Positions 1 to 26,192 of a DNA stretch of 58,472 bases are shown in pieces. The notes beneath the pieces were generated by a model. That model was not told where the DNA came from. It saw only the letters and a program-made list of their open reading frames with translations, and made no database searches. Origin of the DNA: an uncultured Fidelibacterota bacterium. Lineage in GTDB: Bacteria; Fidelibacterota; Marinisomatia; Marinisomatales; UBA1611. Within the stretch, counting starts at the first letter, position 1. Every line of letters starts with the position of its first letter. A program made the position numbers and the translations under genes. The stretch is taken from NCBI GenBank assembly GCA_913040915.1, contig CAJWHW010000010.1, positions 1 to 58,472 on the forward strand, in the 5' to 3' direction.

Positions 1-2170
<2,170 letters not shown>

Positions 2171-2247
2171 TTGAACTTCCTTTAATTGTTAATGGTTTGG
2201 TGAGAAAAAAAAATAGAATTGGGCAGAAAATTACTATTATTCATTCA

Positions 2248-3192
2248 CTAATACTGCTTTGTTTTTATACAAAATTCTCTGTAGATCCTTGCTAATTCTT
2301 GTAACATTTCAACGGAAGATTGAAAGTTATATGACATAATGTGTTCTACATTCAACCCTATAGGCACCTTTAAATCATTCGTAGAAATAAAATTAAGAGT
2401 ATCATTTAGCACTTCAATGGCTACATCTAGAGATCTTTCAGTCATTGATCCAGGTCTACCCTGTAGATATCGCTCTGTTTCAGCAGGGATTTCCACGCCT
2501 AACCATTTTAAAAAATCAATATTTTTTTGCGATGAAACTGGGGCAAAACTTAGTAAAATCCTTCTCGGAAATGTTTTTGATTCATCACATTGTTTTTGGT
2601 AAAAATCTATCATTTTTATGACCTTGGCAGAGTCATATAAGACCTGGGTAGTAAAAAACTCTGATCCATGATTTGTTTTTTTGATCAAATTCATCGATTC
2701 TTTAACCCGACTTGGAATAGCAATACCTCCACAGAATATATCACCACCATTTGAATTAAAATCACTTGAAATAGCACTTAGCATTTCCTTTACAGACGGT
2801 CCAGGGTATTTAATCGAACTAGATTCACCGCCAACAATAATCATATTTTCTATCTCAAATTCCTTATTAGTTTGTTCCATCCATTTTAATTGAATGTCAA
2901 GTGGCTCATGAACAACGACCCGATTTACAATCGCTTCAATTCCAACAATATCTTGCATCATTCGGCCAAATTCTCTTGGCTCGCCGCGTTTTTGACTGGA
3001 GACAGGTCTATCTCCTCTACTATTTTCATCATGAACTTCCGGAATATTGATGGCATCTATATGAGTTTGGGATAGCAATGAACTGATAATCTCTGCATAG
3101 GAATTCAACGTGCCGTCCTTTTCCCTTGGTGGTAGGATTTCATATGCAACTACAGGTCTTTTCGGTTTTTTTACTTTATCTCTAATTCTCAT
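2248..3192 (-). CDS. Divergent 5,10-methylenetetrahydrofolate reductase (mycobacterial-type-like MTHFR)
   Basis: YEILPP, GIAIPSR..E, K..HGSEFFTTQVLYD and ILLSF motifs of the MTHFR fold; located between metH and metK. Confidence 0.8.
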   Translation of the reverse strand: MRIRDKVKKPKRPVVAYEILPPREKDGTLNSYAEIISSLLSQTHIDAINIPEVHDENSRGDRPVSSQKRGEPREFGRMMQDIVGIEAIVNRVVVHEPLDIQLKWMEQTNKEFEIENMIIVGGESSSIKYPGPSVKEMLSAISSDFNSNGGDIFCGGIAIPSRVKESMNLIKKTNHGSEFFTTQVLYDSAKVIKMIDFYQKQCDESKTFPRRILLSFAPVSSQKNIDFLKWLGVEIPAETERYLQGRPGSMTERSLDVAIEVLNDTLNFISTNDLKVPIGLNVEHIMSYNFQSSVEMLQELARIYREFCIKTKQY

Positions 3193-3198
3193 ATATTA

Positions 3199-6100
3199 TT
3201 ATTTATTTTTTAATACGCTGAAATAACGTGATTCAGGATGGGAAAATATCCATCCGCAAACAGATGCGGTAGGCCACATAGCTCTCGTTTCTGTGAGAGT
3301 AACACCGATCATATTCTCAACATCCAACAGTTTCCAAATTTTATCTTTTTCTGTATGGTCAGGACAAGCCGGGTATCCCGGTGCCGGTCGAATGCCAATG
3401 TATTTCTCTTTTATTAATTCATCATGGGAAAACTTTTCATCCTTAGCAAAACCCCAGTATTCTTTTCGAATTTTCTCATGTAACCACTCAGCACTTGCTT
3501 CTGCAAAGCGATCTGCTATTAATTTCACCATAATAGAACTATAATCATCGTGATTAGACTCATACTTTTCTACAAGTTTTTTCAATCCATGTCCAGCAGT
3601 TACAGTGAATACTCCTAGGTGATCGCTCCCTTCAGAAGAAATGAAATCTGCTAAACAATAATTAGGCTGTTTACCTTTATTAATAAGCTGACGTGGATAA
3701 TTAAATGTTATATTATCTTCATAGAGAACGATATTTTCATTTTCTGATTTTGCCGGAAAAATGCCGAAGATCATTTTAACTGTTAAAGATTCATAATCTA
3801 TTAATTCCGAGAGTAATCTTTGAGCATCATCAAATAATTTTTGAGCTTCTGAACCTTTTTTAGCATCATTTAGAATTCCAGGATATATACCTTTTAATTC
3901 CCAAGCATGAAAAAAAGGTGTCCAATCAATATAACTAGCTAGTTCCTTAAGAGAAATATTTTTTACAGTTTTTCTACCAATTGAGTTTGGCTGATAAGGT
4001 TTATATTTAAGATTTGGTTTTCTTGAACGTGCTTCTTTTATATTTATTTTTTTAATTGTTTGTTGATTCTGATAGAATTTCTCACGTATTGAATTATAAT
4101 CATCTGTGGTTTTTTGGATAAGTAATTCTTTTTGTTCGGGTTTTAATAATTGGCCCACCACTCCCACGCATCTACTTGCATCTAGAACATGAAAAACAGA
4201 TTTTGGATATTTTTCTTCTATTTTTATAGCTGTATGTTTTTTACTAGTTGTAGCACCTCCTATTAGAAGAGGAGTTGTAAAATTTTTCCTTCTCATTTCA
4301 GATGCAACATGTACCATTTCATCCAAACTTGGAGTAATGAGACCTGATAATCCGATTAAATCCGCATTTAATTCTATGGCGGTTGATAAAATCTTATCTG
4401 CTGGGACCATAACCCCTAAGTCCACAATTTTATAGCCATTACAGCCTAGAACTACTCCAACAATATTTTTACCAATATCGTGTACATCTCCTTTAACAGT
4501 AGCTAAAACAATCGTACCATTTGTTAAATCTTCCAAACCTTTTGATTCTTTTTCCTTTTCGATAAATGGCACCAAATACGCCACAGCTTTTTTCATTACC
4601 CGAGCAGATTTCACCACTTGGGGTAAAAACATTTTTCCGGCTCCAAAAAGATCTCCTACCCTATTCATACCATCCATAAGGGGCCCTTCTATAACCTGAA
4701 TTGGTTTTTCCAACTGATCACGTGCTTCTTCAGTATCAGCTTCAATATATTTATCGATCCCTTCCACCAATGAATGAGACAACCTTTCTTTAACAGGTAA
4801 GGATCGCCAAGCAATATCTTGAATTTTCTGCTTTTTCTTTGCTCGGTAATTTTCAGCCAATTCGACTAACCTATCCGTAGAATCGATACGGCGATCAAAT
4901 AAAACATCTTCAATAGATTCTCTTAAGTCAGAATCGATATCATCATAAACAACCAACTGACCTGCATTGACTATCCCCATATCCATACCATTCTGGATTG
5001 CATGATATAAGAAACAGGAATGCATAGCTTCTCGCACAGGATTATTTCCCCGAAAAGAAAAAGACAGGTTGCTGACACCACCGCTGATGTGGACACCGGG
5101 CATTTTATCTCTAATTGTTTTTGCAGCATCTATAAATGCTTTCCCGTACTGATTATGTTCTTTAATGCCAGTTGCTACTGCAAAAATATTTGGATCAAAT
5201 ATGATATCTTCTGGTTTTAACCCAACCTTTTCAGTTAAAATATTATAAGCTCGTTCACAAATATCCACCTTACGCTTGTAGGTATCGGCCTGACCTTTTT
5301 CATCAAAGGCCATAACAATTACAGAAGCACCATATTTTTTTATTATTTTTGCATGGTGGATAAATTCGTCTTCACCTTCTTTTAATGAGATAGAGTTAAC
5401 TACTCCTTTTCCCTGTATATTTTTTAAACCTGTTTCAATCACAGTCCATTTTGAAGAATCAATCATAATGGGAACTTTGGATATTTCCGGTTCAGATGCA
5501 ATTAAACGTAAAAAATCTTCCATTGCTTGTTCTGAATCAATTAGGCCATCATCCATGTTCACATCAATTATTTGTGCCCCATTTTCTACTTGCTGCCTAG
5601 CAACGGAAAGTGCTTCTTCATATTGATTTTCTTTAATGAGTAGGCGGAATCGTTCCGATCCTGTCACATTGGTACGTTCTCCCACATTGATAAAATTAGA
5701 TTCAGGTCGAATTACTAAAGGCTCCAAGCCGCTTAATTTTGTATAGGGTTCAGTTTTCGGTATTTTTCTTGGTTTTATATCTTGGACAGAGTTTGAAAAG
5801 GCTGCAATATGATCTGGTGTTGTTCCGCAGCATCCACCAATAATATTCACTAAACCTGATTCTGCAAATTCTTGGAGAAAATTTGACATTTGATCTGGGG
5901 TCTCGTCATATTCTCCGAATTCATTGGGTAGTCCAGCGTTTGGATAAACCATTATATTAGTATCCGCAATCTTAGAAAGGGCATCTATATAGGGACGTAT
6001 TTGTTCTGCTCCGAGAGCACAATTCAAGCCTACTGCAAGAAGGTCAGCATGCCGAATTGAATTCCAAAATGCATCAACCGTTTGCCCTGATAAGAGACGT

Positions 6101-16231: not shown

Positions 16232-19200
16232 TCACTTTAAAAATAGCATTTTCTTTGTGGATTGATATTTATCAGTTTGAATTGCGAAAAAATACATTCC
16301 GGTTGCAACTTGGCTACCATTATCACTGGTACCATCCCAGACTAGAGTATGATAACCTGGAGTCAACTCCGTATTGGATAGAGTCCGAATCTTTTGCCCC
16401 AAAATATTAAAAATAGTCAGATTAACAACACTAGCTTCCGGCAAATCAAATCTGATTTCAGTGGAAGGGTTAAATGGATTCGGAAAATTCTGGTGTAGCA
16501 CAAATTCATCGGGAATAACCTTGACTTCTGATGAAGTCGTTCTGGACACTGTTTCAATTAATTGTCCATCTACACCAGCGATCTTATTACCGCCTAATGA
16601 TATATGCGTAACATCTTGTTTGTCTCCAATGAATTCTACCGGAATTGATAAGTACGAATTATTTTTTCCATTAATGCTGCCACCTCGTAGATTTGCAGCT
16701 ATAACTTTTATTTTACCATCTTCTTTTTCAGTGAAAGAAACCATTACATTTTCCTGTAAAACCGATAGTGACGGTGACAATACCTTTACTAAATCTGGAT
16801 CATATTCTAATTCAAATTCAATACCACGAACCGGACTACTATATTCAATATCAAAACCTAATTTAGAATTATTAAAATCAGTTTTTAGATCAATATATGC
16901 CAATTCGGATGGATCAAAACCTAATGTTCTTCCCATTCCGCCAAAAATAATATCTATCATCATTATAATATCAGCAATATTTATTTCTTCATCATTATTG
17001 AGGTCACAATTACGAGTTTGGTCTTCTGACGGTATTTCCTGTTCTAGAATAAAGTCTATGGCTGATAACACATCAGAAATGTCTACATCACTATCAAAAT
17101 CAGCATCACCATAGGTAAAGGGGACTGCACAGATTGTATTGGATGCTCTAGATTCCAATTGACCATATCCTCCATCAGATGGATCTCCAGTATCCCAGAA
17201 TGCTCTTACATTATAACAATACTCTAAATAGTTCGGACTAGCATCAACAGTGGCAAAAGTATCTACTGTGGCAACTAAAAATGTTTCATCTCCATTAGAA
17301 TCAATTTCATATACTCTATATTCAAGTAATTCATTATCACGATTATCAAATATGTTAATTGGCGAAATAAAAACAGGATGTGTAGGTTCACTTGAAAAAT
17401 TTATTGGTGTTAGATTACTGGTACTAGCCATTAAGGATGCATTAATATTGGTAGAGTTGTAATCAATAGGGGGAGTATTATCAACTGAAGATAAAGTTCT
17501 TACACCTCCACCATAGGACATTACATGTACTGCCATCATATAATCACCCCCATAGCCTAAATAGTCACCATAGTTCCATTCACCATCATAAAGTGTTATC
17601 ATATTTTCAGCATAATCAACACTTGCATCAACACCAAACCCCTCTAGGTCCGTCCAACCAGTGGAATGCGAAATAAGAACATAGACCGCACCATCTAATC
17701 CTGATAAATCTGGATAGATCGTGGCCCACCCATCTTCCGCAATTGATTCTTCATCGTGCAATAGGTTACCAGGGTAACCATTATTATCATCAAATATTAA
17801 TATCCTTACTGGACCGTGTGTGGCATCTGGCCATGGCCAGAATTCATCACCTTCAGATAATATTTTTATGGATGCGCCTAAAACATCAAAACCACCACCT
17901 ACATCAAAACGCATTCCATGGGCAAATCCATCCTCATAAGTATCAAAAAAGTAGAATGCAGTAGATAGGATCCCATCATCATATTGAATTGTTAATTCTT
18001 CACCATCTCCGGGTGTACGCCACTCAAGATAAACCTGTTCATCAAGCGGTGTCCCTTCAAGGCCTGCAGGCTTTGGCATATCAGGCGAAAGCATAACATC
18101 TAATATAGTGGGTTCAGCTTGTGCCAACACTAATGTATCTATACTGACGGTTGAAAAACCAAAACGTGATAAGGTGACAGTCTGAGATCCAGTGTTTAAA
18201 TTCCAGAGGGTATAGGTACCATTTTGATCTGTTGTATCAGAAAAGTCTCCAGAAGAAACAACTACACTATCCAAGGTTGATCCATTTGGATCTGTAATAA
18301 CTCCGGTAATATCACCATATAAGAAAGTAGGTGAAGCACTAACTGTAATTATTTCACTTTCATCAGTTTCATTTTCATTAACAAAGTATACAGCACTCAC
18401 ACCAAGTTCATAGGTCACATTATTTGTAAGACCATCAACAGAATAATTTCTGAGTTGTATGATACTACTATTATGTTGAGTGCCATCAACATAGGCATTG
18501 TAACCAATTAAATCACCAGCTACAACTGTTGTATCTACTTCAAAAGTAGTAGTTCCTGTTTCACCAGTTTCAATTGTCCAATTTAAATATTCTTCTTCGT
18601 TACTAGCATTTGTTACAATTAAGCTGTTACCATTCCAACCATCACCCCATGAATCATAACCATTGACACTGTAAACGCCATGATCTAGTGATGCAGTCTC
18701 TAAGTATGGAGCTCCGCCTGAAGCAACAATTGTTCCAGATTCATCAAATATTTCCCAAGTCACTTCCGTCTGCCAAGAGCCTCCATCACACTCAATCGTG
18801 ACTGGTACGGACCTTGAGTTACGAGAGTAATCTGGATGTACGATAGATGGAGCTGGCTCTTGATGCGATTCTGTTGTTCCATATACTTCATATTTATTAA
18901 TATTTTGTAATTCTGTTTGGTTGTTTAATTTATTTAAATCTGTGATACCAGGCCGGAATGCATCAGAAGTTCTATTAGATGCTGTGGCACTAACTATCAA
19001 ATTATATTCTCCAAAAGACGTGGTACCATATCCGTCTACAATTAAAAAATAAGTACCTGAAAGTCCTGTTCCACTAATCTCAGATTGGAGACCTGTTTCA
19101 CAACCATCATCATCAAATGCAACTTGAGTTTCACAGTTAGAGCCAAAAAGAATTAAGTAAGTGTCCCAAGTATTACCGCAAAGTGAAAAATTAACATCAA

Positions 19201-19504
19201 GATTTCCATCTACAAAAAACTCATATACTACGTCTGGGCCATTTGCTGAGAAGCCATTTACGTAATCATTTTCAAAAGTGGCTGTTGATCCATTGAAGGT
19301 TTCAGTAAACCCATCAGTAATCGTTCCACCCTGAATTGGTGATGCGCATGTTTCACCTTCAGATATTTGCACTCCAGGAATTTCCCAATATAATGTAACT
19401 TCTTCATCGCCTTCAACAGCTGACAGATATGTAGGTGGATCTTGTGCAAAAAGCGAAACGCTAAATATGATAAGTAAAGAATAGTATGAAAAATTCTTAA
19501 GCAC
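16232..19504 (-). CDS. Large acidic secreted multidomain protein: PPC-like, FN3-like and carboxypeptidase-regulatory-like domains, dockerin, cohesin-like domain, FlgD/T9SS-type C-terminal domain
   Basis: GTG start with SD AGGAG; signal peptide; duplicated Ca-loops GDADFDSDVDISDV / CDLNNDEEINIADI; C-terminus LHQNFPNPFNPSTEIRFDLP...WDGTSDNGSQVATGMYF...KKMLFLK. Confidence 0.85.
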   Translation of the reverse strand: MLKNFSYYSLLIIFSVSLFAQDPPTYLSAVEGDEEVTLYWEIPGVQISEGETCASPIQGGTITDGFTETFNGSTATFENDYVNGFSANGPDVVYEFFVDGNLDVNFSLCGNTWDTYLILFGSNCETQVAFDDDGCETGLQSEISGTGLSGTYFLIVDGYGTTSFGEYNLIVSATASNRTSDAFRPGITDLNKLNNQTELQNINKYEVYGTTESHQEPAPSIVHPDYSRNSRSVPVTIECDGGSWQTEVTWEIFDESGTIVASGGAPYLETASLDHGVYSVNGYDSWGDGWNGNSLIVTNASNEEEYLNWTIETGETGTTTFEVDTTVVAGDLIGYNAYVDGTQHNSSIIQLRNYSVDGLTNNVTYELGVSAVYFVNENETDESEIITVSASPTFLYGDITGVITDPNGSTLDSVVVSSGDFSDTTDQNGTYTLWNLNTGSQTVTLSRFGFSTVSIDTLVLAQAEPTILDVMLSPDMPKPAGLEGTPLDEQVYLEWRTPGDGEELTIQYDDGILSTAFYFFDTYEDGFAHGMRFDVGGGFDVLGASIKILSEGDEFWPWPDATHGPVRILIFDDNNGYPGNLLHDEESIAEDGWATIYPDLSGLDGAVYVLISHSTGWTDLEGFGVDASVDYAENMITLYDGEWNYGDYLGYGGDYMMAVHVMSYGGGVRTLSSVDNTPPIDYNSTNINASLMASTSNLTPINFSSEPTHPVFISPINIFDNRDNELLEYRVYEIDSNGDETFLVATVDTFATVDASPNYLEYCYNVRAFWDTGDPSDGGYGQLESRASNTICAVPFTYGDADFDSDVDISDVLSAIDFILEQEIPSEDQTRNCDLNNDEEINIADIIMMIDIIFGGMGRTLGFDPSELAYIDLKTDFNNSKLGFDIEYSSPVRGIEFELEYDPDLVKVLSPSLSVLQENVMVSFTEKEDGKIKVIAANLRGGSINGKNNSYLSIPVEFIGDKQDVTHISLGGNKIAGVDGQLIETVSRTTSSEVKVIPDEFVLHQNFPNPFNPSTEIRFDLPEASVVNLTIFNILGQKIRTLSNTELTPGYHTLVWDGTSDNGSQVATGMYFFAIQTDKYQSTKKMLFLK

Positions 19505-19702: not shown

Positions 19703-22681
19703 TTATAGGCTACGTTGAAAACTAAAAATCCAATTATTTTTTTCAATTCTTATAACTCCATCATCATAAATAAAAAATGGTAAATCAACTCTAAGAAAAA
19801 GATCTTTCTCAAATAATTTAGTTTTTATTCTTGTTCCCAACCCTAAATCGCCCAATACTCTTTCAAAATATTTATTGGGGTTATCAATAGGCCGCCATAT
19901 AGCTCTATTTTTATCCCAAAATATTCCTACATCACCAAATATTGTGAATTGAAAATTTATTTTATAAAATGACTGTGATATGCTTAATTCAGATGATTGA
20001 GCAATCAACGCATCAGCACCCCTTCTATTTTCACTAACAAAACCACGGATATTACCTTCTCCAGGCATATGATAATGACTAATTAATGAATCACCATCAA
20101 AGATTTCTATTCCATAGAATTGGTCCACCAAATAATTTTTTCTAAGAAGGTCACTTGAGCTATTCCCTTCAATGTTATAACCTTCCTGACCTGGCACACC
20201 ACTACTACCAGCCCAAATTTTCCCCATAATGAATCTGTTATTAAAGCTGAATTTTTTGAAAGATTGTGAAAAATATGCGGTAGTTGTCATCCGAGTAAAA
20301 TTCCAGTCTGATAAATTACCCAAACTGGAAGCTCCATTTATACTAAAGCTGAAGGAACCTATTTTTGATGACCAATCTATATATCCTACACCAAGTTTAC
20401 CATCAGAGTTGTAGCCTAATTTCTTTGCATATGTACGGTTATATTCAGGCTGAACATAAAACCCTAGAGAAAAATTATGAGTAGGTGTCCTACCATAAGC
20501 TCTGTTCCATTTTTTCTCAATTTCGCCTCCTATCTCCTTCACACCTGGTCTATTAAATGCCCAGAAGTGAAAAGTAGTTCTAGGGAAATAATGAACAGGT
20601 TCGCGCCACCCACCTATGTACCAGAATAATTCTTTTGACTCTAAGCCGTAATTTGCACGTATAGTGGTTCCTTCATATTGCCCATAATCATAATCCAGCG
20701 TAATACCGGGCGCAAGACCAATGGTTTTTTCTTGGTAATAAAAATTTGGAATCCAGCGAATTACATATTCATCTCGCGGATTATACCATAGTCCTGGCCA
20801 ATCAAAAAGAATCTTCCTTTTCATAGCAGTGGTATTATTACGATAGTCTAAGTCTACCGTTTGGACATCAGGATCAATTGTAACCTTAACGGGTTTTTTA
20901 TCCACTGTGTAAATAAATGTATCTTCATAACGCCAGAGATGATTTTCCCACCAGCGACGGTCTTTTGTACCATCTTTAAATGTAGTTTCAACCAAAAGCG
21001 GAATAAATCTTTTTCCTATACAATCAATGCCTAGCTCGATTGTCCAACTTCCATTTTTGTTCTGCGATTTATTAAACGATTTAATTCCATAATCCAAGTG
21101 ATGCGTGGTATGAAGCCAGGCATCAAAAAACCAATCTAGTTCTTGCCCTGTAAATTCTTCAACTGCTTCCACAAATCGCTCTTCATTAACATGTTTCAGT
21201 TTCCATTTATTATAATAATGCTGTAGGGCAGCATAATAAACTGAATCTCCTAAAAAGTATTTTAGCTCTGTTAACATCAATGCGGGCTTTGTATAGGCAT
21301 TCCGACCATAAGCAAAACCATTATTAAAAAGATGCGAAGGACGGCTGATATTTTCATCATGGCCACTGCGCATAAACCGTATTACTCGCCACTGATCCGA
21401 ATGTAAGTCATTTTCTAATGGCCAATATTTTTTTGGAAATTTCTCATAATCGTCATAAAGAGATAAATCAAAACCCTGATTGCCATAGCGCTCCATCAAA
21501 TAGTGAGTTGTTTGTGTTGTAGTAAATCCTTCATCTAACCATGCTTCATCTACTTCATCATTTGCGAGTATTCCATAGAAGTAGATATGACCGTACTCAT
21601 GCACAATCAACCCTTCATCATCTCTTCCGTTCATAACTAGCATAGGGTATTCCATCCCACCGGGTTTCATACGATCAGTAGTGGTGACCTGCGGGTAGGG
21701 ATATTCTCCAAATTTTTCTTCTAGCCAAGCCATGGCATTGATAGACCGTTCTAATACTACTTTGGTCCACTTATCACCTCGATCTTTATCATACAGTACA
21801 TGAACATCAATATTTTCATATTTTCCACCTTCATACAGAAAATTTCTAGATGCAACCCAAGCAAAATCATGTACGTTTTCAGCAAGGAAAGTTACATTTC
21901 TTCTTTCAGTTGAATCCGGCTCTACATATGTTGAATCAAATATATCAATCCAAATATCATAATCTAAAGATGTGTCCACTTTCACTGACTCCCACCCAGG
22001 ATCACCGTTTGTTACAATGCCTGATGCAGCAATAATGAATGTTTTAGGTAAATCAAACTTGACATTAAAATCTCCAAATTCACCATAAAATTCACCTTCG
22101 GCATGGAAAACATTTGCATGCCAGCCATCTTGATCATAGACAACCAGTTTAGGATACCATTGAGCCATATTGTACTGCCCTCTGTAGTAACCAGCCCGTT
22201 CCACCATTTCACCTATATGATGTGTCCACCTTATATCTATTCTAATGGATTCATTAGGAGCTAATTTTTGCAATAAAATTGCTTTGAGAATAGTATCATC
22301 AATGGAATATTCTTTCAGTATCGGTTTTTTCTTTTGTGCGATATTGAAATCATGTATTTCAATTTTACTGGTGAATCCATCTAATCGATCTTTAAAATAT
22401 TTTGCTCGCGAAGCACGCCCCGCATTTCCTATATATTCACGATATTTTACTGAATTTAATTGAAACGCGTTCGGGTAAAGGTGCATATAAATCCTATCTA
22501 AAGTATCAGGAGAGTTATTTGTATAGCGGATCTTAGAAAAACCTGTCAATTGCTGTGCAGAGTCAATGAGAGTGATATCCATTTCATAATCGACTTTTTG
22601 TTGCCAATATCCATCAAGCGGATCTGCAATTAATCGGGTGAACAAGATTATAGGATAAACTAAAATTAATAAATATTTCAT
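19703..22681 (-). CDS. Exported M1 family zinc aminopeptidase with C-terminal Omp85-like beta-barrel
   Basis: Signal peptide, YWQQKVDY, GGMEYP, HEYGH-x18-E (AWLDEG); the last ~355 aa are amphipathic strands with GNIRGF, FGDVG, DLGLGTR, LRVDLP and terminal WIFSFQRSL. Confidence 0.88.
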   Translation of the reverse strand: MKYLLILVYPIILFTRLIADPLDGYWQQKVDYEMDITLIDSAQQLTGFSKIRYTNNSPDTLDRIYMHLYPNAFQLNSVKYREYIGNAGRASRAKYFKDRLDGFTSKIEIHDFNIAQKKKPILKEYSIDDTILKAILLQKLAPNESIRIDIRWTHHIGEMVERAGYYRGQYNMAQWYPKLVVYDQDGWHANVFHAEGEFYGEFGDFNVKFDLPKTFIIAASGIVTNGDPGWESVKVDTSLDYDIWIDIFDSTYVEPDSTERRNVTFLAENVHDFAWVASRNFLYEGGKYENIDVHVLYDKDRGDKWTKVVLERSINAMAWLEEKFGEYPYPQVTTTDRMKPGGMEYPMLVMNGRDDEGLIVHEYGHIYFYGILANDEVDEAWLDEGFTTTQTTHYLMERYGNQGFDLSLYDDYEKFPKKYWPLENDLHSDQWRVIRFMRSGHDENISRPSHLFNNGFAYGRNAYTKPALMLTELKYFLGDSVYYAALQHYYNKWKLKHVNEERFVEAVEEFTGQELDWFFDAWLHTTHHLDYGIKSFNKSQNKNGSWTIELGIDCIGKRFIPLLVETTFKDGTKDRRWWENHLWRYEDTFIYTVDKKPVKVTIDPDVQTVDLDYRNNTTAMKRKILFDWPGLWYNPRDEYVIRWIPNFYYQEKTIGLAPGITLDYDYGQYEGTTIRANYGLESKELFWYIGGWREPVHYFPRTTFHFWAFNRPGVKEIGGEIEKKWNRAYGRTPTHNFSLGFYVQPEYNRTYAKKLGYNSDGKLGVGYIDWSSKIGSFSFSINGASSLGNLSDWNFTRMTTTAYFSQSFKKFSFNNRFIMGKIWAGSSGVPGQEGYNIEGNSSSDLLRKNYLVDQFYGIEIFDGDSLISHYHMPGEGNIRGFVSENRRGADALIAQSSELSISQSFYKINFQFTIFGDVGIFWDKNRAIWRPIDNPNKYFERVLGDLGLGTRIKTKLFEKDLFLRVDLPFFIYDDGVIRIEKNNWIFSFQRSL

Positions 22682-25280: not shown

Positions 25281-26192
25281 TCATTTTTCCCGGGTCTCTA
25301 GACGGACGTTCATTTCTACTCTTTGGTAAGGGTTATCTCTATCATCTCGGGGTAAATTTACAATTTGATCGATGACCTTATTGCCCTCAATCACCTGGCC
25401 AAAAACCGTATATTGTCCATCTAGGTGTGGCACATCTCCCGCACAGATAAAAAATTGGCTTCCAGCGCTGTTTGGACTGGACGATCGTGCCATAGATAAA
25501 ATACCGTGTTTATGTTTTAGATTGCTGAATTCTGCAGGAAGATCCCACGTTTTTTGGTTTTTTTCATCCCCAACACCAAAATATTTTGCTGCATGACCGC
25601 CTATTCCATAGGTTTCTTTTTTAGTGGGGTCTTTAGTATTTGGATCTCCACCCTGAATAACAAAGCCTGGAATTACTCTGTGAAAAATTGTACCATTATA
25701 ATATCCATTTTTGGCATGAAGTTTAAAACTTTCGACGTGTTTAGGTGCGGATTCATCAAAAAAGTCTACAACCATATCTCCATACTGTGTTGTAATTACT
25801 GCTAATTCCTCTGAGACCATTATATTTATTTCCTTTTTGTTATTTTTGTAATTAGGGTCACCTTCAAACCCATCAATTGAAATAGTGTAAACACCGGATT
25901 GGTTTGGCTTAAAATTCAATACTGTAGATAGTTTTGTCTGTTTATTTAGACGTATAGAGATTGCTTCACCAAATTTAAAGTCCTTATTATTGCTACCGGA
26001 TGTAACGGATAATAATAGGGGTTTCTTAATTGGTATATCACTGCTAATATCTATCTTCACTTCGACTTCTTCTCCATCAAAAATTTCAAAAGTTGTTCCA
26101 GAAACATTTGAAATTTTTAAATCATTTGTTGAAACTGTACAGCCACCAATGATTATATAAATGAATAATAGAAACTTTAAATTACTTTTCAT
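25281..26192 (-). CDS. Cyclophilin-type peptidyl-prolyl isomerase, probable lipoprotein with an N-terminal Ig-like extension
   Basis: IGGC lipobox; YYNGTIFHRVIPGFVIQGGDP, LSMAR, SAGSQFFI, HLDGQYTVFGQV. Confidence 0.93.
   Translation of the reverse strand: MKSNLKFLLFIYIIIGGCTVSTNDLKISNVSGTTFEIFDGEEVEVKIDISSDIPIKKPLLLSVTSGSNNKDFKFGEAISIRLNKQTKLSTVLNFKPNQSGVYTISIDGFEGDPNYKNNKKEINIMVSEELAVITTQYGDMVVDFFDESAPKHVESFKLHAKNGYYNGTIFHRVIPGFVIQGGDPNTKDPTKKETYGIGGHAAKYFGVGDEKNQKTWDLPAEFSNLKHKHGILSMARSSSPNSAGSQFFICAGDVPHLDGQYTVFGQVIEGNKVIDQIVNLPRDDRDNPYQRVEMNVRLETREK

Follow-up and report, generated by a model that had tools for sequence, protein, structure and literature searches.

The window analysed here comprises positions 1–58,472 of contig CAJWHW010000010.1 of an uncultured Fidelibacterota bacterium (assembly GCA_913040915.1), and the gene of interest lies on its minus strand at positions 19703–22681, stop codon counted in. 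The list of open reading frames (ORFs) and the translation define it as a single 992-codon frame with an ATG start, and since at least 107 full-length homologues, mostly of about 1,000 aa, were recovered, this frame is not a chance ORF. The encoded protein joins an M1 zinc peptidase to an Omp85-type outer-membrane β-barrel in one chain, an architecture which a first-pass annotation had proposed from the letters of the DNA and which was borne out by a match to the Pfam family PF01433, by the sixteen strands of an AlphaFold2 (AF2) model and by structure matches. All motifs named in that annotation were found in the translation at the places given for them, and the switch from peptidase to barrel, put at about residue 637, coincides with the first barrel strand of the AF2 model, which starts at residue 638.

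The chain opens with a putative Sec-type signal peptide (residues 1–19; positions 22625–22681, minus strand as for all features below) without a lipobox cysteine, which was judged from the sequence and not by a predictor; it is hydrophobic, forms a helix (residues 2–18) in the AF2 model and is followed by a YWQQ motif conserved across the family. The N-terminal β domain of the M1 module (domain I; residues 29–226, 22004–22597) and the thermolysin-like catalytic domain (residues 241–523, 21113–21961) come next, the latter carrying GGMEYP (residues 341–346, 21644–21661), HEYGH-x18-E (residues 361–384, 21530–21601) and the catalytic Tyr463. An all-β domain III of six strands with a conserved DPD..D.D..NN tail (residues 531–616, 20834–21091), which is not a POTRA domain, leads into a short linker (residues 617–637, 20771–20833) with a pre-barrel strand (621–626) and a WPG..YNPRD motif, the linker being part of the predicted peptidase–barrel interface described below. 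Residues 638–992 (19706–20770) form the predicted 16-strand barrel seen in two AF2 models and in structure comparisons. Loop 6 (residues 825–888, 20018–20209) joins strands 11 and 12 and carries GNIRGF (876–881, 20039–20056), while FGDVG (915–919, 19925–19939), the form taken here by the Omp85 motif (F/G)xDxG, is located on strand 13; GDLGLGTR ends at residue 951, LRVDLP spans residues 963–968, and the protein terminates with WIFSFQRSL (984–992). The full-length AF2 model (predicted local distance difference test, pLDDT, 76.5; predicted template modelling score, pTM, 0.55) contains, from the N-terminus on, the β domain (29–226), the catalytic domain (241–523), the six-strand all-β domain (531–602), a low-confidence segment (607–619), strand 621–626 and the barrel, which shows the same strand pattern as in the model of the barrel part only.

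Peptidase_M1 (PF01433) was the sole Pfam family recognised in the protein, over residues 355–522 (E 1.7e-13, 51.1 bits vs. a cut-off of 27.7). The zinc ligands H361, H365 and E384, as well as E362, E344 and Y463, show no variation among 40 relatives; the aligned counterpart of Y463 in the solved alanine aminopeptidase 7v9o is the Tyr of its Y-x-K-G motif. Judging from these residues, the zinc site and the catalytic residues of the M1 module are intact and the module is predicted to be catalytically competent. A Foldseek search with the full-length model aligned about 625–650 columns to ERAP1/2, IRAP, the puromycin-sensitive aminopeptidase, APN and the tricorn factor F3 (E about 5e-21), a span that corresponds, in the model, to M1 domains I–III. 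Among the chains in the PDB, a sequence-profile search picked up M1 peptidases exclusively, the best at E 0.0021, and did not find any Omp85 chain. The helical domain IV has no counterpart in the model, in which the barrel comes directly after domain III (531–602); as modelled, the module is still an M1 peptidase, in a truncated form.

The canonical M1 exopeptidase motif is GxMEN. Its counterpart in the studied protein is GGMEY, in which the Gly, the Met and Glu344 are kept and invariant and the Asn is replaced by Tyr; the pattern G[GA]ME[YFNH] was present in 236 of 250 relatives of 900–1,100 aa. In the tail of the module D603, P604, D610, D612, R614, N615 and N616 are invariant. This DPD..D.D..NN stretch (603–616) seems to be the closing part of the M1 module and not an element specific to the barrel, as a similar motif is found at the end of an unrelated M1 paralogue encoded in the same genome. 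The paralogue (contig C38, locus L057, positions 1111–3624, minus strand) is an M1 peptidase fused to a multi-pass, ABC-2 permease-like N-terminal region in a 1,238-aa open frame, and its M1 module closes with a DP....D.D..DN tail resembling the pre-barrel tail of the studied protein.

The barrel half was modelled separately with AF2 from residues 600–992 and a 40-row alignment, which gave sixteen strands (from 638–649 to 976–988) at a pLDDT of 82.3 and a pTM of 0.78. The 64-residue loop between strands 11 and 12 (825–888) carries IRGF (878–881) and FGDVG falls on strand 13 (908–924), so that the 16-strand barrel expected in the first-pass annotation was recovered, with the IRGF of loop 6 and the FxDxG of strand 13 both in their proper positions. 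R879, F915, D917 and G919 do not vary among 40 relatives. The structure matches, which compare a predicted, not a solved, structure of the window protein, were uniform: in the PDB, every one of the 50 matches that Foldseek listed was a BamA or TamA chain (E 1e-8 to 8e-7, TM about 0.41–0.50), and all 50 entries listed by VIA-align were Sam50, BamA or TamA, with Z from 17.9 to 20.1 and a root-mean-square deviation of 4.0–6.0 over 267–315 residues. In a Foldseek-independent search of 48,161 representatives, ranks 1–18 were all taken by Omp85/TpsB proteins (Sam50, TamA, BamA, FhaC, CdiB and Toc75; Z 15.8–19.3), the best non-Omp85 barrel being the porin OccD2 with Z 14.1. Since FhaC (18.5) was level with BamA and TamA, the predicted fold alone does not separate the Omp85 from the TpsB branch.

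Sequence comparison added a moderate signal. Alignment by hhalign to the five other Omp85 proteins of the genome had a probability of 46.6% and E 2e-4, which supports the motif alignment only and is no proof; in it NIRGF is paired with PLRGY of BamA, FGDVG with FSEMG and GLGTR with GAGIR. Look-alikes of the barrel part in the ESM Atlas were named ‘Bacterial surface antigen (D15)’ with a score of 0.97. The Pfam family of Omp85 barrels, PF01103, which the first-pass annotation had expected to match, was not found in the window protein, either as a whole or with the C-terminal 365 residues alone up to E 10, and a whole-genome PF01103 scan likewise did not pick it up. The expectation held for the relatives: five of the eight that were scanned (51–65% identical in the barrel) matched at 24.4–27.4 bits vs. 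a cut-off of 24, the other three having no match. Moreover, a precomputed PF01103 match exists for 10 of the 107 relatives, and 6 of 44 more distant members exceed the cut-off. Overall, by its modelled fold, the C-terminal half is an Omp85-type barrel.

The absence of an evident POTRA domain, also put forward in the first-pass annotation, was upheld by both Pfam and the AF2 model. No match to PF07244, PF08479 or PF08478 was obtained in the whole protein or, up to E 10, in its C-terminal half. As a positive control, the same library detected POTRA domains in four of the other Omp85 proteins of the genome, in one case with a score marginally below the cut-off. Helices are entirely missing from residues 524–748 of the model, and residues 531–602 are all-β. 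Apart from two peptidase fusions, the genome (1.86 Mb) encodes five Omp85 proteins (loci L001–L005). One is a BamA with five POTRA domains in an 810-aa frame, and another, of 595 aa, resembles TamA; of the remaining three, two have about 440 aa and a single POTRA domain each, and none was detected in the third, of 460 aa. In the studied protein only 21 residues separate the conserved end of the M1 module from strand 1. Counted from the tail motif, the PRD motif (residue 635, three before strand 1) follows at a distance of 16–21 residues, with a median of 18, in the 130 relatives in which both motifs were recognised. Judged from the alignments, such a fixed spacing is easier to reconcile with docking than with a tether that lets a passenger be translocated.

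The fusion is not confined to the studied genome. A search with residues 620–992 returned 107 proteins, mostly of about 1,000 aa and all with PF01433, and when 8,000 candidates were scored with a profile built from 34 divergent full-length members, at least 1,260 clusters were obtained at E ≤ 1e-20. The listed clusters, 120 in number, measure 967–1,055 aa, and all have PF01433. Going by the source names in the database, on which the taxonomic range rests, the family occurs in, among others, KSB1, Gemmatimonadota, Calditrichaeota, Deferribacteres, Zhuqueibacterota, Fidelibacterota and Marinimicrobia. Automatic annotation calls some of these proteins ‘M1 family metallopeptidase’ and others ‘BamA/TamA family outer membrane protein’, the latter name being used in Gemmatimonadota, and neither name covers the whole protein. 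In the 250 relatives of 900–1,100 aa, HExxH-x18-E was retained in 247, the loop-6 motif in 245, and both in 242. Because the clusters span several phyla and 242 of 250 relatives keep both motifs, the sequence comparisons indicate that the fusion is old and widespread and that both of its halves are under selection.

Within the phylum, the barrel was detected at E ≤ 1e-10 in 100 of 301 genomes (71 of the 180 high-quality ones), mostly as one copy per genome and in open frames of about 975–1,040 aa. Its presence differs between families: it was detected in 23 of the 25 genomes from the family of the window and in 39 of the 42 from another, and several other families have none (0/26 to 0/33), one of the barrel-free families having genomes of about 1 Mb. 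The barrel match is broken in four genomes, by one TGA in G271, by two TGA and four TAA in the weak match of G252, and into two pieces in G047 and G261; these are possibly pseudogenes or assembly breaks. A scan of a genome collection gave 47 loci, of which the named ones were almost all from Marinimicrobia/Neomarinimicrobiota, with one from the FCB group (Fibrobacterota, Chlorobiota and Bacteroidota) and one from Winogradskyella. The contig of the latter (L047, from a Winogradskyella sp. metagenome-assembled genome) is nearly identical in gene order and match coordinates to a Marinimicrobia contig (L041), and its IleRS is 69% identical to that of the window. From this comparison it is probably mis-binned and, if so, provides no evidence for the family in Flavobacteriia.

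The barrel was also searched for on its own. A barrel-only profile run against 1.84 billion representatives gave 243 proteins at E ≤ 0.001. The 44 longer matches that were scanned comprised 31 with PF01433 and 13 without a Pfam match; when the N-termini of 18 shorter proteins (those 13 and five others) were inspected, at least eight started inside M1 or tail sequence and are thus fragments, and no clear case of a stand-alone barrel was present among the 18. The gene stretch itself was found in marine metagenome runs of eight studies. On metagenome contigs, 605 of 607 matched stretches encode a relative, some of the 80 kept matching the M1 part only. An origin of the fusion from an assembly join or a frameshift was considered and can be dismissed with near certainty, as the architecture of about 1,000 aa recurs in 107 clusters, 47 loci and 100 genomes.

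In the window the gene belongs to a co-oriented run of cyclophilin, DsbD, an AhpC/TSA-redoxin lipoprotein (TlpA-like), the fusion gene, a dockerin/CarboxypepD_reg protein with a tail of the type IX secretion system (T9SS), and DegP. Such a run had been pointed out in the first-pass annotation as the setting of the gene; it is present as described, and its value as functional context did not survive a wider comparison. In Marinimicrobia the order is largely retained: of the 47 loci, many of which are too short to tell and three of which are long and without any of these neighbours, 34 have a TlpA-like gene, 33 DegP and 25 IleRS. The genes pyrE, pyrF and ileS are likewise kept alongside in Marinimicrobia. 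Among 80 metagenome loci of the wider family, the TlpA-like neighbour occurred only in 15 low-GC loci (GC content 0.33–0.44), and none of the 48 loci with GC ≥ 0.60 had a match to TlpA, DsbD, cyclophilin or DegP. The recurrent neighbours at these high-GC loci were cupin, DinB, ferredoxin, TetR and ATP-synthase b/delta genes; Pfam matches were obtained for 6 of 16 representative recurrent flanking ORFs, none of them envelope-related. Because pyrE, pyrF and ileS travel along and the high-GC loci have no envelope neighbours, the gene order is best described as lineage-specific synteny and not as a conserved operon, and, on these comparisons, it carries no weight for function.

The adjoining 1,090-aa protein (16232–19504, minus strand) contains CarboxypepD_reg, a type I dockerin and a T9SS sorting domain (Por_Secre_tail/FlgD_ig). 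It adjoins the fusion gene in the closer Marinimicrobia and is missing in the more distant ones, in which DegP follows directly. A strong terminator-like hairpin (16213–16180) is located after the dockerin gene. The cyclophilin-type peptidyl-prolyl isomerase (25281–26192, minus strand) is extended at its N-terminus by about 130 residues and has a signal resembling that of lipoproteins, with the Cys in IIGGC. Surface or periplasmic subunits with peptidyl-prolyl isomerase activity are known in the T9SS complexes and in the β-barrel assembly machinery (BAM) of Bacteroidota (PMC12611786). A scan for promoters and terminators gave counts not above those in shuffled sequences (58 vs. 56.7 and 10 vs. 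8.1). In one small metatranscriptome, two 151-nt contigs were identical to positions 21310–21460 and 21488–21638, which is no proof of transcription, and the other runs among the four RNA runs gave only short matches of 90–99% identity outside the gene, or spurious ones.

An important question, left open in the first-pass annotation, is whether the peptidase is displayed on the cell surface or faces the periplasm. It was addressed by a two-chain prediction with the M1 module (residues 26–616) as one chain and the linker with the barrel (617–992) as the other, both cut from the 40-row alignment. The predicted interface scored ipSAE values of 0.70, 0.68 and 0.65, compared with 0.00 for the best of three controls, with a partner pLDDT of 78 and at least 75% of the contacts common to the runs. 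The mark for this score had been calibrated on 157 solved complexes, of which 116 reached it, and on 215 mismatched pairs, of which 2 did; these counts are only a rough guide here, as our own alignment was used. On the barrel side the contacts comprise residues 617–618, 620, 628, 631–637, 666–669, 694, 696–697, 700–701 and 728–731, that is, the segment before strand 1 and the turns after strands 2, 4 and 6 (T1–T3); on the peptidase side they comprise residues 86–90, 416–441, 453–457, 530–536, 555, 598–601 and 606–616. Among the predicted contacts are those of residues 427–438 and 611–614 with R636, Y666, G667 and H697. In solved BamA proteins, loop 6 is extracellular and dips into the lumen (PMC12611786). 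Because loop 6 follows strand 11 and is extracellular, the turns after even-numbered strands should be periplasmic. The peptidase is thus predicted to dock under the barrel, on its periplasmic face and near the strand-1 seam.

The barrel side of this interface is conserved in the Marinimicrobia alignment, with a conservation of 0.81 vs. 0.59 for the rest of the barrel, a difference in which none of 10,000 permutations was as high. The turns T1–T3 reached 0.74–0.80, compared with 0.29–0.33 for T5/T6 and 0.15–0.47 for loops L1, L2 and L7. Docking on T1–T3, a short linker of conserved length and the lack of a POTRA domain are the reasons for favouring a protein that would be a periplasm-facing aminopeptidase anchored in the outer membrane, a reading to which we give a little better than an even chance. 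The evidence on the question of membrane side thus leans to the periplasm (ipSAE 0.68 vs. 0.00, spacing of 16–21 residues, no POTRA domain).

If this is correct, the fusion protein would be exported by Sec and its barrel inserted into the outer membrane, and the M1 module would fold in the periplasm, docked on turns T1–T3 and the pre-strand-1 segment of its own barrel. For the substrate and the physiological role we infer the following. At the inner face of the outer membrane the module may trim N-terminal residues from oligopeptides or unfolded polypeptides, the likely candidates being peptides that arrive through the outer membrane. With the domain IV lid gone, longer chains may gain access to the active site. 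In a peptide-scavenging marine heterotroph, the resulting amino acids and short peptides could then be passed to inner-membrane transporters.

Several points weigh against this interpretation. The peptidase-side contacts are not enriched in conserved positions within Marinimicrobia (0.73 vs. 0.77, p 0.80), and in the multi-phylum alignment neither side is enriched, with 0.36 vs. 0.36 for the barrel side (p 0.47) and 0.33 vs. 0.47 for the peptidase side. Both chains come from a single protein, as its two halves, and were given one and the same alignment. The periplasmic placement is a matter of prediction, and predictors place an N-terminal domain by the N-terminus of strand 1 by default; moreover, structure predictors cannot represent a translocated state. 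The motif GGMEY stands in place of GxMEN, and for this reason strict aminopeptidase activity is assumed. A plain anchor would not need an Omp85 barrel with the loop-6 motif kept. Finally, PlpD and FplA, the only Omp85–enzyme fusions with experimental data, expose or release their enzyme outside the cell (PMC6555100).

The last of these points leads to the opposite topology, in which the barrel, while being assembled or afterwards, would pass the M1 module across the outer membrane in a type V-like manner, yielding a surface ectoenzyme that trims peptides outside the cell, like PlpD/FplA or AaaA. The domain order, with an N-terminal enzyme and a C-terminal 16-strand Omp85 barrel, is the same as in type Vd (PMC6555100), an aminopeptidase passenger has a precedent in the type Va protein AaaA (PMC3426542, PMC6555100), and Heinz and Lithgow, in the text of PMC4104836, left both topologies open for their enzyme–Omp85 group. 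The retention of both the loop-6 and the strand-13 motif would also be expected if the barrel is more than an anchor. On the other hand, every described type Vd protein has a POTRA domain, which the studied protein lacks; here the conserved part of the M1 module and strand 1 are only 21 residues apart, and this spacing is tightly conserved. The confidently predicted interface with the periplasmic turns T1–T3 (0.68 vs. 0.00), which are conserved within the clade, also speaks against self-display, as does the T9SS route that the genome offers to surface proteins, Por_Secre_tail being carried by the neighbouring gene. Taken together, we regard self-display as rather unlikely. The periplasmic placement could also be read as envelope quality control in cis, the peptidase under its Omp85 barrel degrading stalled or misfolded outer-membrane or secreted proteins as a covalent counterpart of BepA–BamA. 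The predicted docking of the M1 module beneath its own barrel would suit such a role, as would the absence of domain IV, the usual lid limiting M1 enzymes to short peptides, and the position of the Marinimicrobia gene between TlpA/DsbD/cyclophilin and DegP (TlpA-like in 34 and DegP in 33 of the 47 loci). Those envelope-factor neighbours are, however, lineage-specific (0/48 high-GC loci), and the unrelated ileS, pyrE and pyrF are also conserved alongside the gene in Marinimicrobia. Moreover, M1 enzymes are exopeptidases, the Glu of the motif that binds the substrate N-terminus is kept in the studied protein, and no POTRA domain is there to receive clients; quality control of this kind seems to us improbable.

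A bolder extension of the favoured periplasm-facing arrangement is that the barrel takes over from domain IV the task of covering the active site, and that the lumen or lateral seam of the barrel feeds polypeptide to the docked peptidase, making the protein a one-chain ‘conduit plus trimmer’. We hold this possibility to be a long shot. If it were true, it would mean either peptide import with cutting on emergence or a BepA-like checkpoint that eats clients from the N-terminus at the Omp85 seam. The genome also encodes a second, unrelated metallopeptidase–Omp85 fusion of 981 aa (contig C33, locus L138, positions 794–3739, plus strand). It combines an N-terminal HEFAH motif, for which Peptidase_MA_2 at 31.9 bits falls narrowly short of the cut-off (32.4), with a TolB-like/PD40 propeller and, at the C-terminus, a match to PF01103 scoring 27 bits. 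Its barrel showed no specific relation to the studied one when the two were compared by hhalign (probability 0.3%). This second fusion hints that Omp85-tethered peptidases of the MA clan might be a general, unrecognised class in the FCB group and neighbouring phyla.

The described uses of Omp85 barrels are those of insertases (BamA, TamA, Sam50), of polypeptide transporters (TpsB) and of one lipase carrier (type Vd). The family described here adds a further use within the superfamily, as a large multi-phylum group in which a barrel without POTRA domains carries an apparently intact M1 aminopeptidase. It also poses a clean question of topology, namely whether a POTRA-less Omp85 barrel exports its N-terminal domain or holds it underneath. 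Marinimicrobia (SAR406) are abundant in the dark ocean, and an outer-membrane-bound aminopeptidase might account for some of the cell-associated aminopeptidase activity measured in seawater.

Enzyme–Omp85 fusions as such are already known, whereas the M1 version is apparently undescribed in the literature searched, though the proteins exist in databases under automatic names. The first-pass annotation knew of no characterised M1–Omp85 protein, and none was met in the titles and abstract beginnings returned by full-text literature searches, whose coverage leaves out most subscription journals. Comparable are the subfamilies of Omp85 proteins that Heinz and Lithgow named ‘Metallo’ and ‘noNterm’ in 2014 (PMC4104836), which are POTRA-less barrels, either bare or with a non-POTRA enzyme domain. 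The domain of the ‘Metallo’ subfamily is PF00149 and not M1 (PMC4104836), and the studied protein has no PF00149 match; PF01433, in turn, is absent from the text of that paper and from four of its supplementary files. In comparison with both subfamilies, the studied family is far larger and spans several phyla.

The barrel of AaaA from Pseudomonas aeruginosa (type Va) is a 12-strand autotransporter barrel. AaaA, like the proposed role of the studied protein, is an aminopeptidase anchored in the outer membrane by a barrel, and it serves nitrogen acquisition from peptides (PMC6555100, PMC3426542); it differs in belonging to another peptidase family and in exposing its enzyme on the surface. Type Vd proteins, i.e., PlpD of P. 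aeruginosa and FplA of Fusobacterium nucleatum, likewise combine an N-terminal enzyme and a C-terminal 16-strand Omp85 barrel in one polypeptide (PMC6555100). They have one POTRA domain between passenger and barrel, and all passengers described in that source are patatin-like lipases, exposed or released (PMC6555100), whereas the studied protein has no POTRA domain, carries an M1 zinc peptidase and is predicted to hold it on the periplasmic face. A zinc metallopeptidase beneath an Omp85 barrel on the periplasmic side is also found in the BAM–BepA complex of Escherichia coli (PMC13478230). BepA is, however, a separate M48 endopeptidase with tetratricopeptide repeats that binds BAM reversibly, in contrast to an M1 module of the exopeptidase type covalently joined to its own POTRA-less barrel. 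With the soluble M1 enzymes (PepN/APN, ERAP1/2, IRAP, tricorn factor F3, LTA4H), finally, the studied protein shares domains I–III, HExxH-x18-E and the catalytic Tyr, and where these enzymes have the helical domain IV, it has a membrane barrel.

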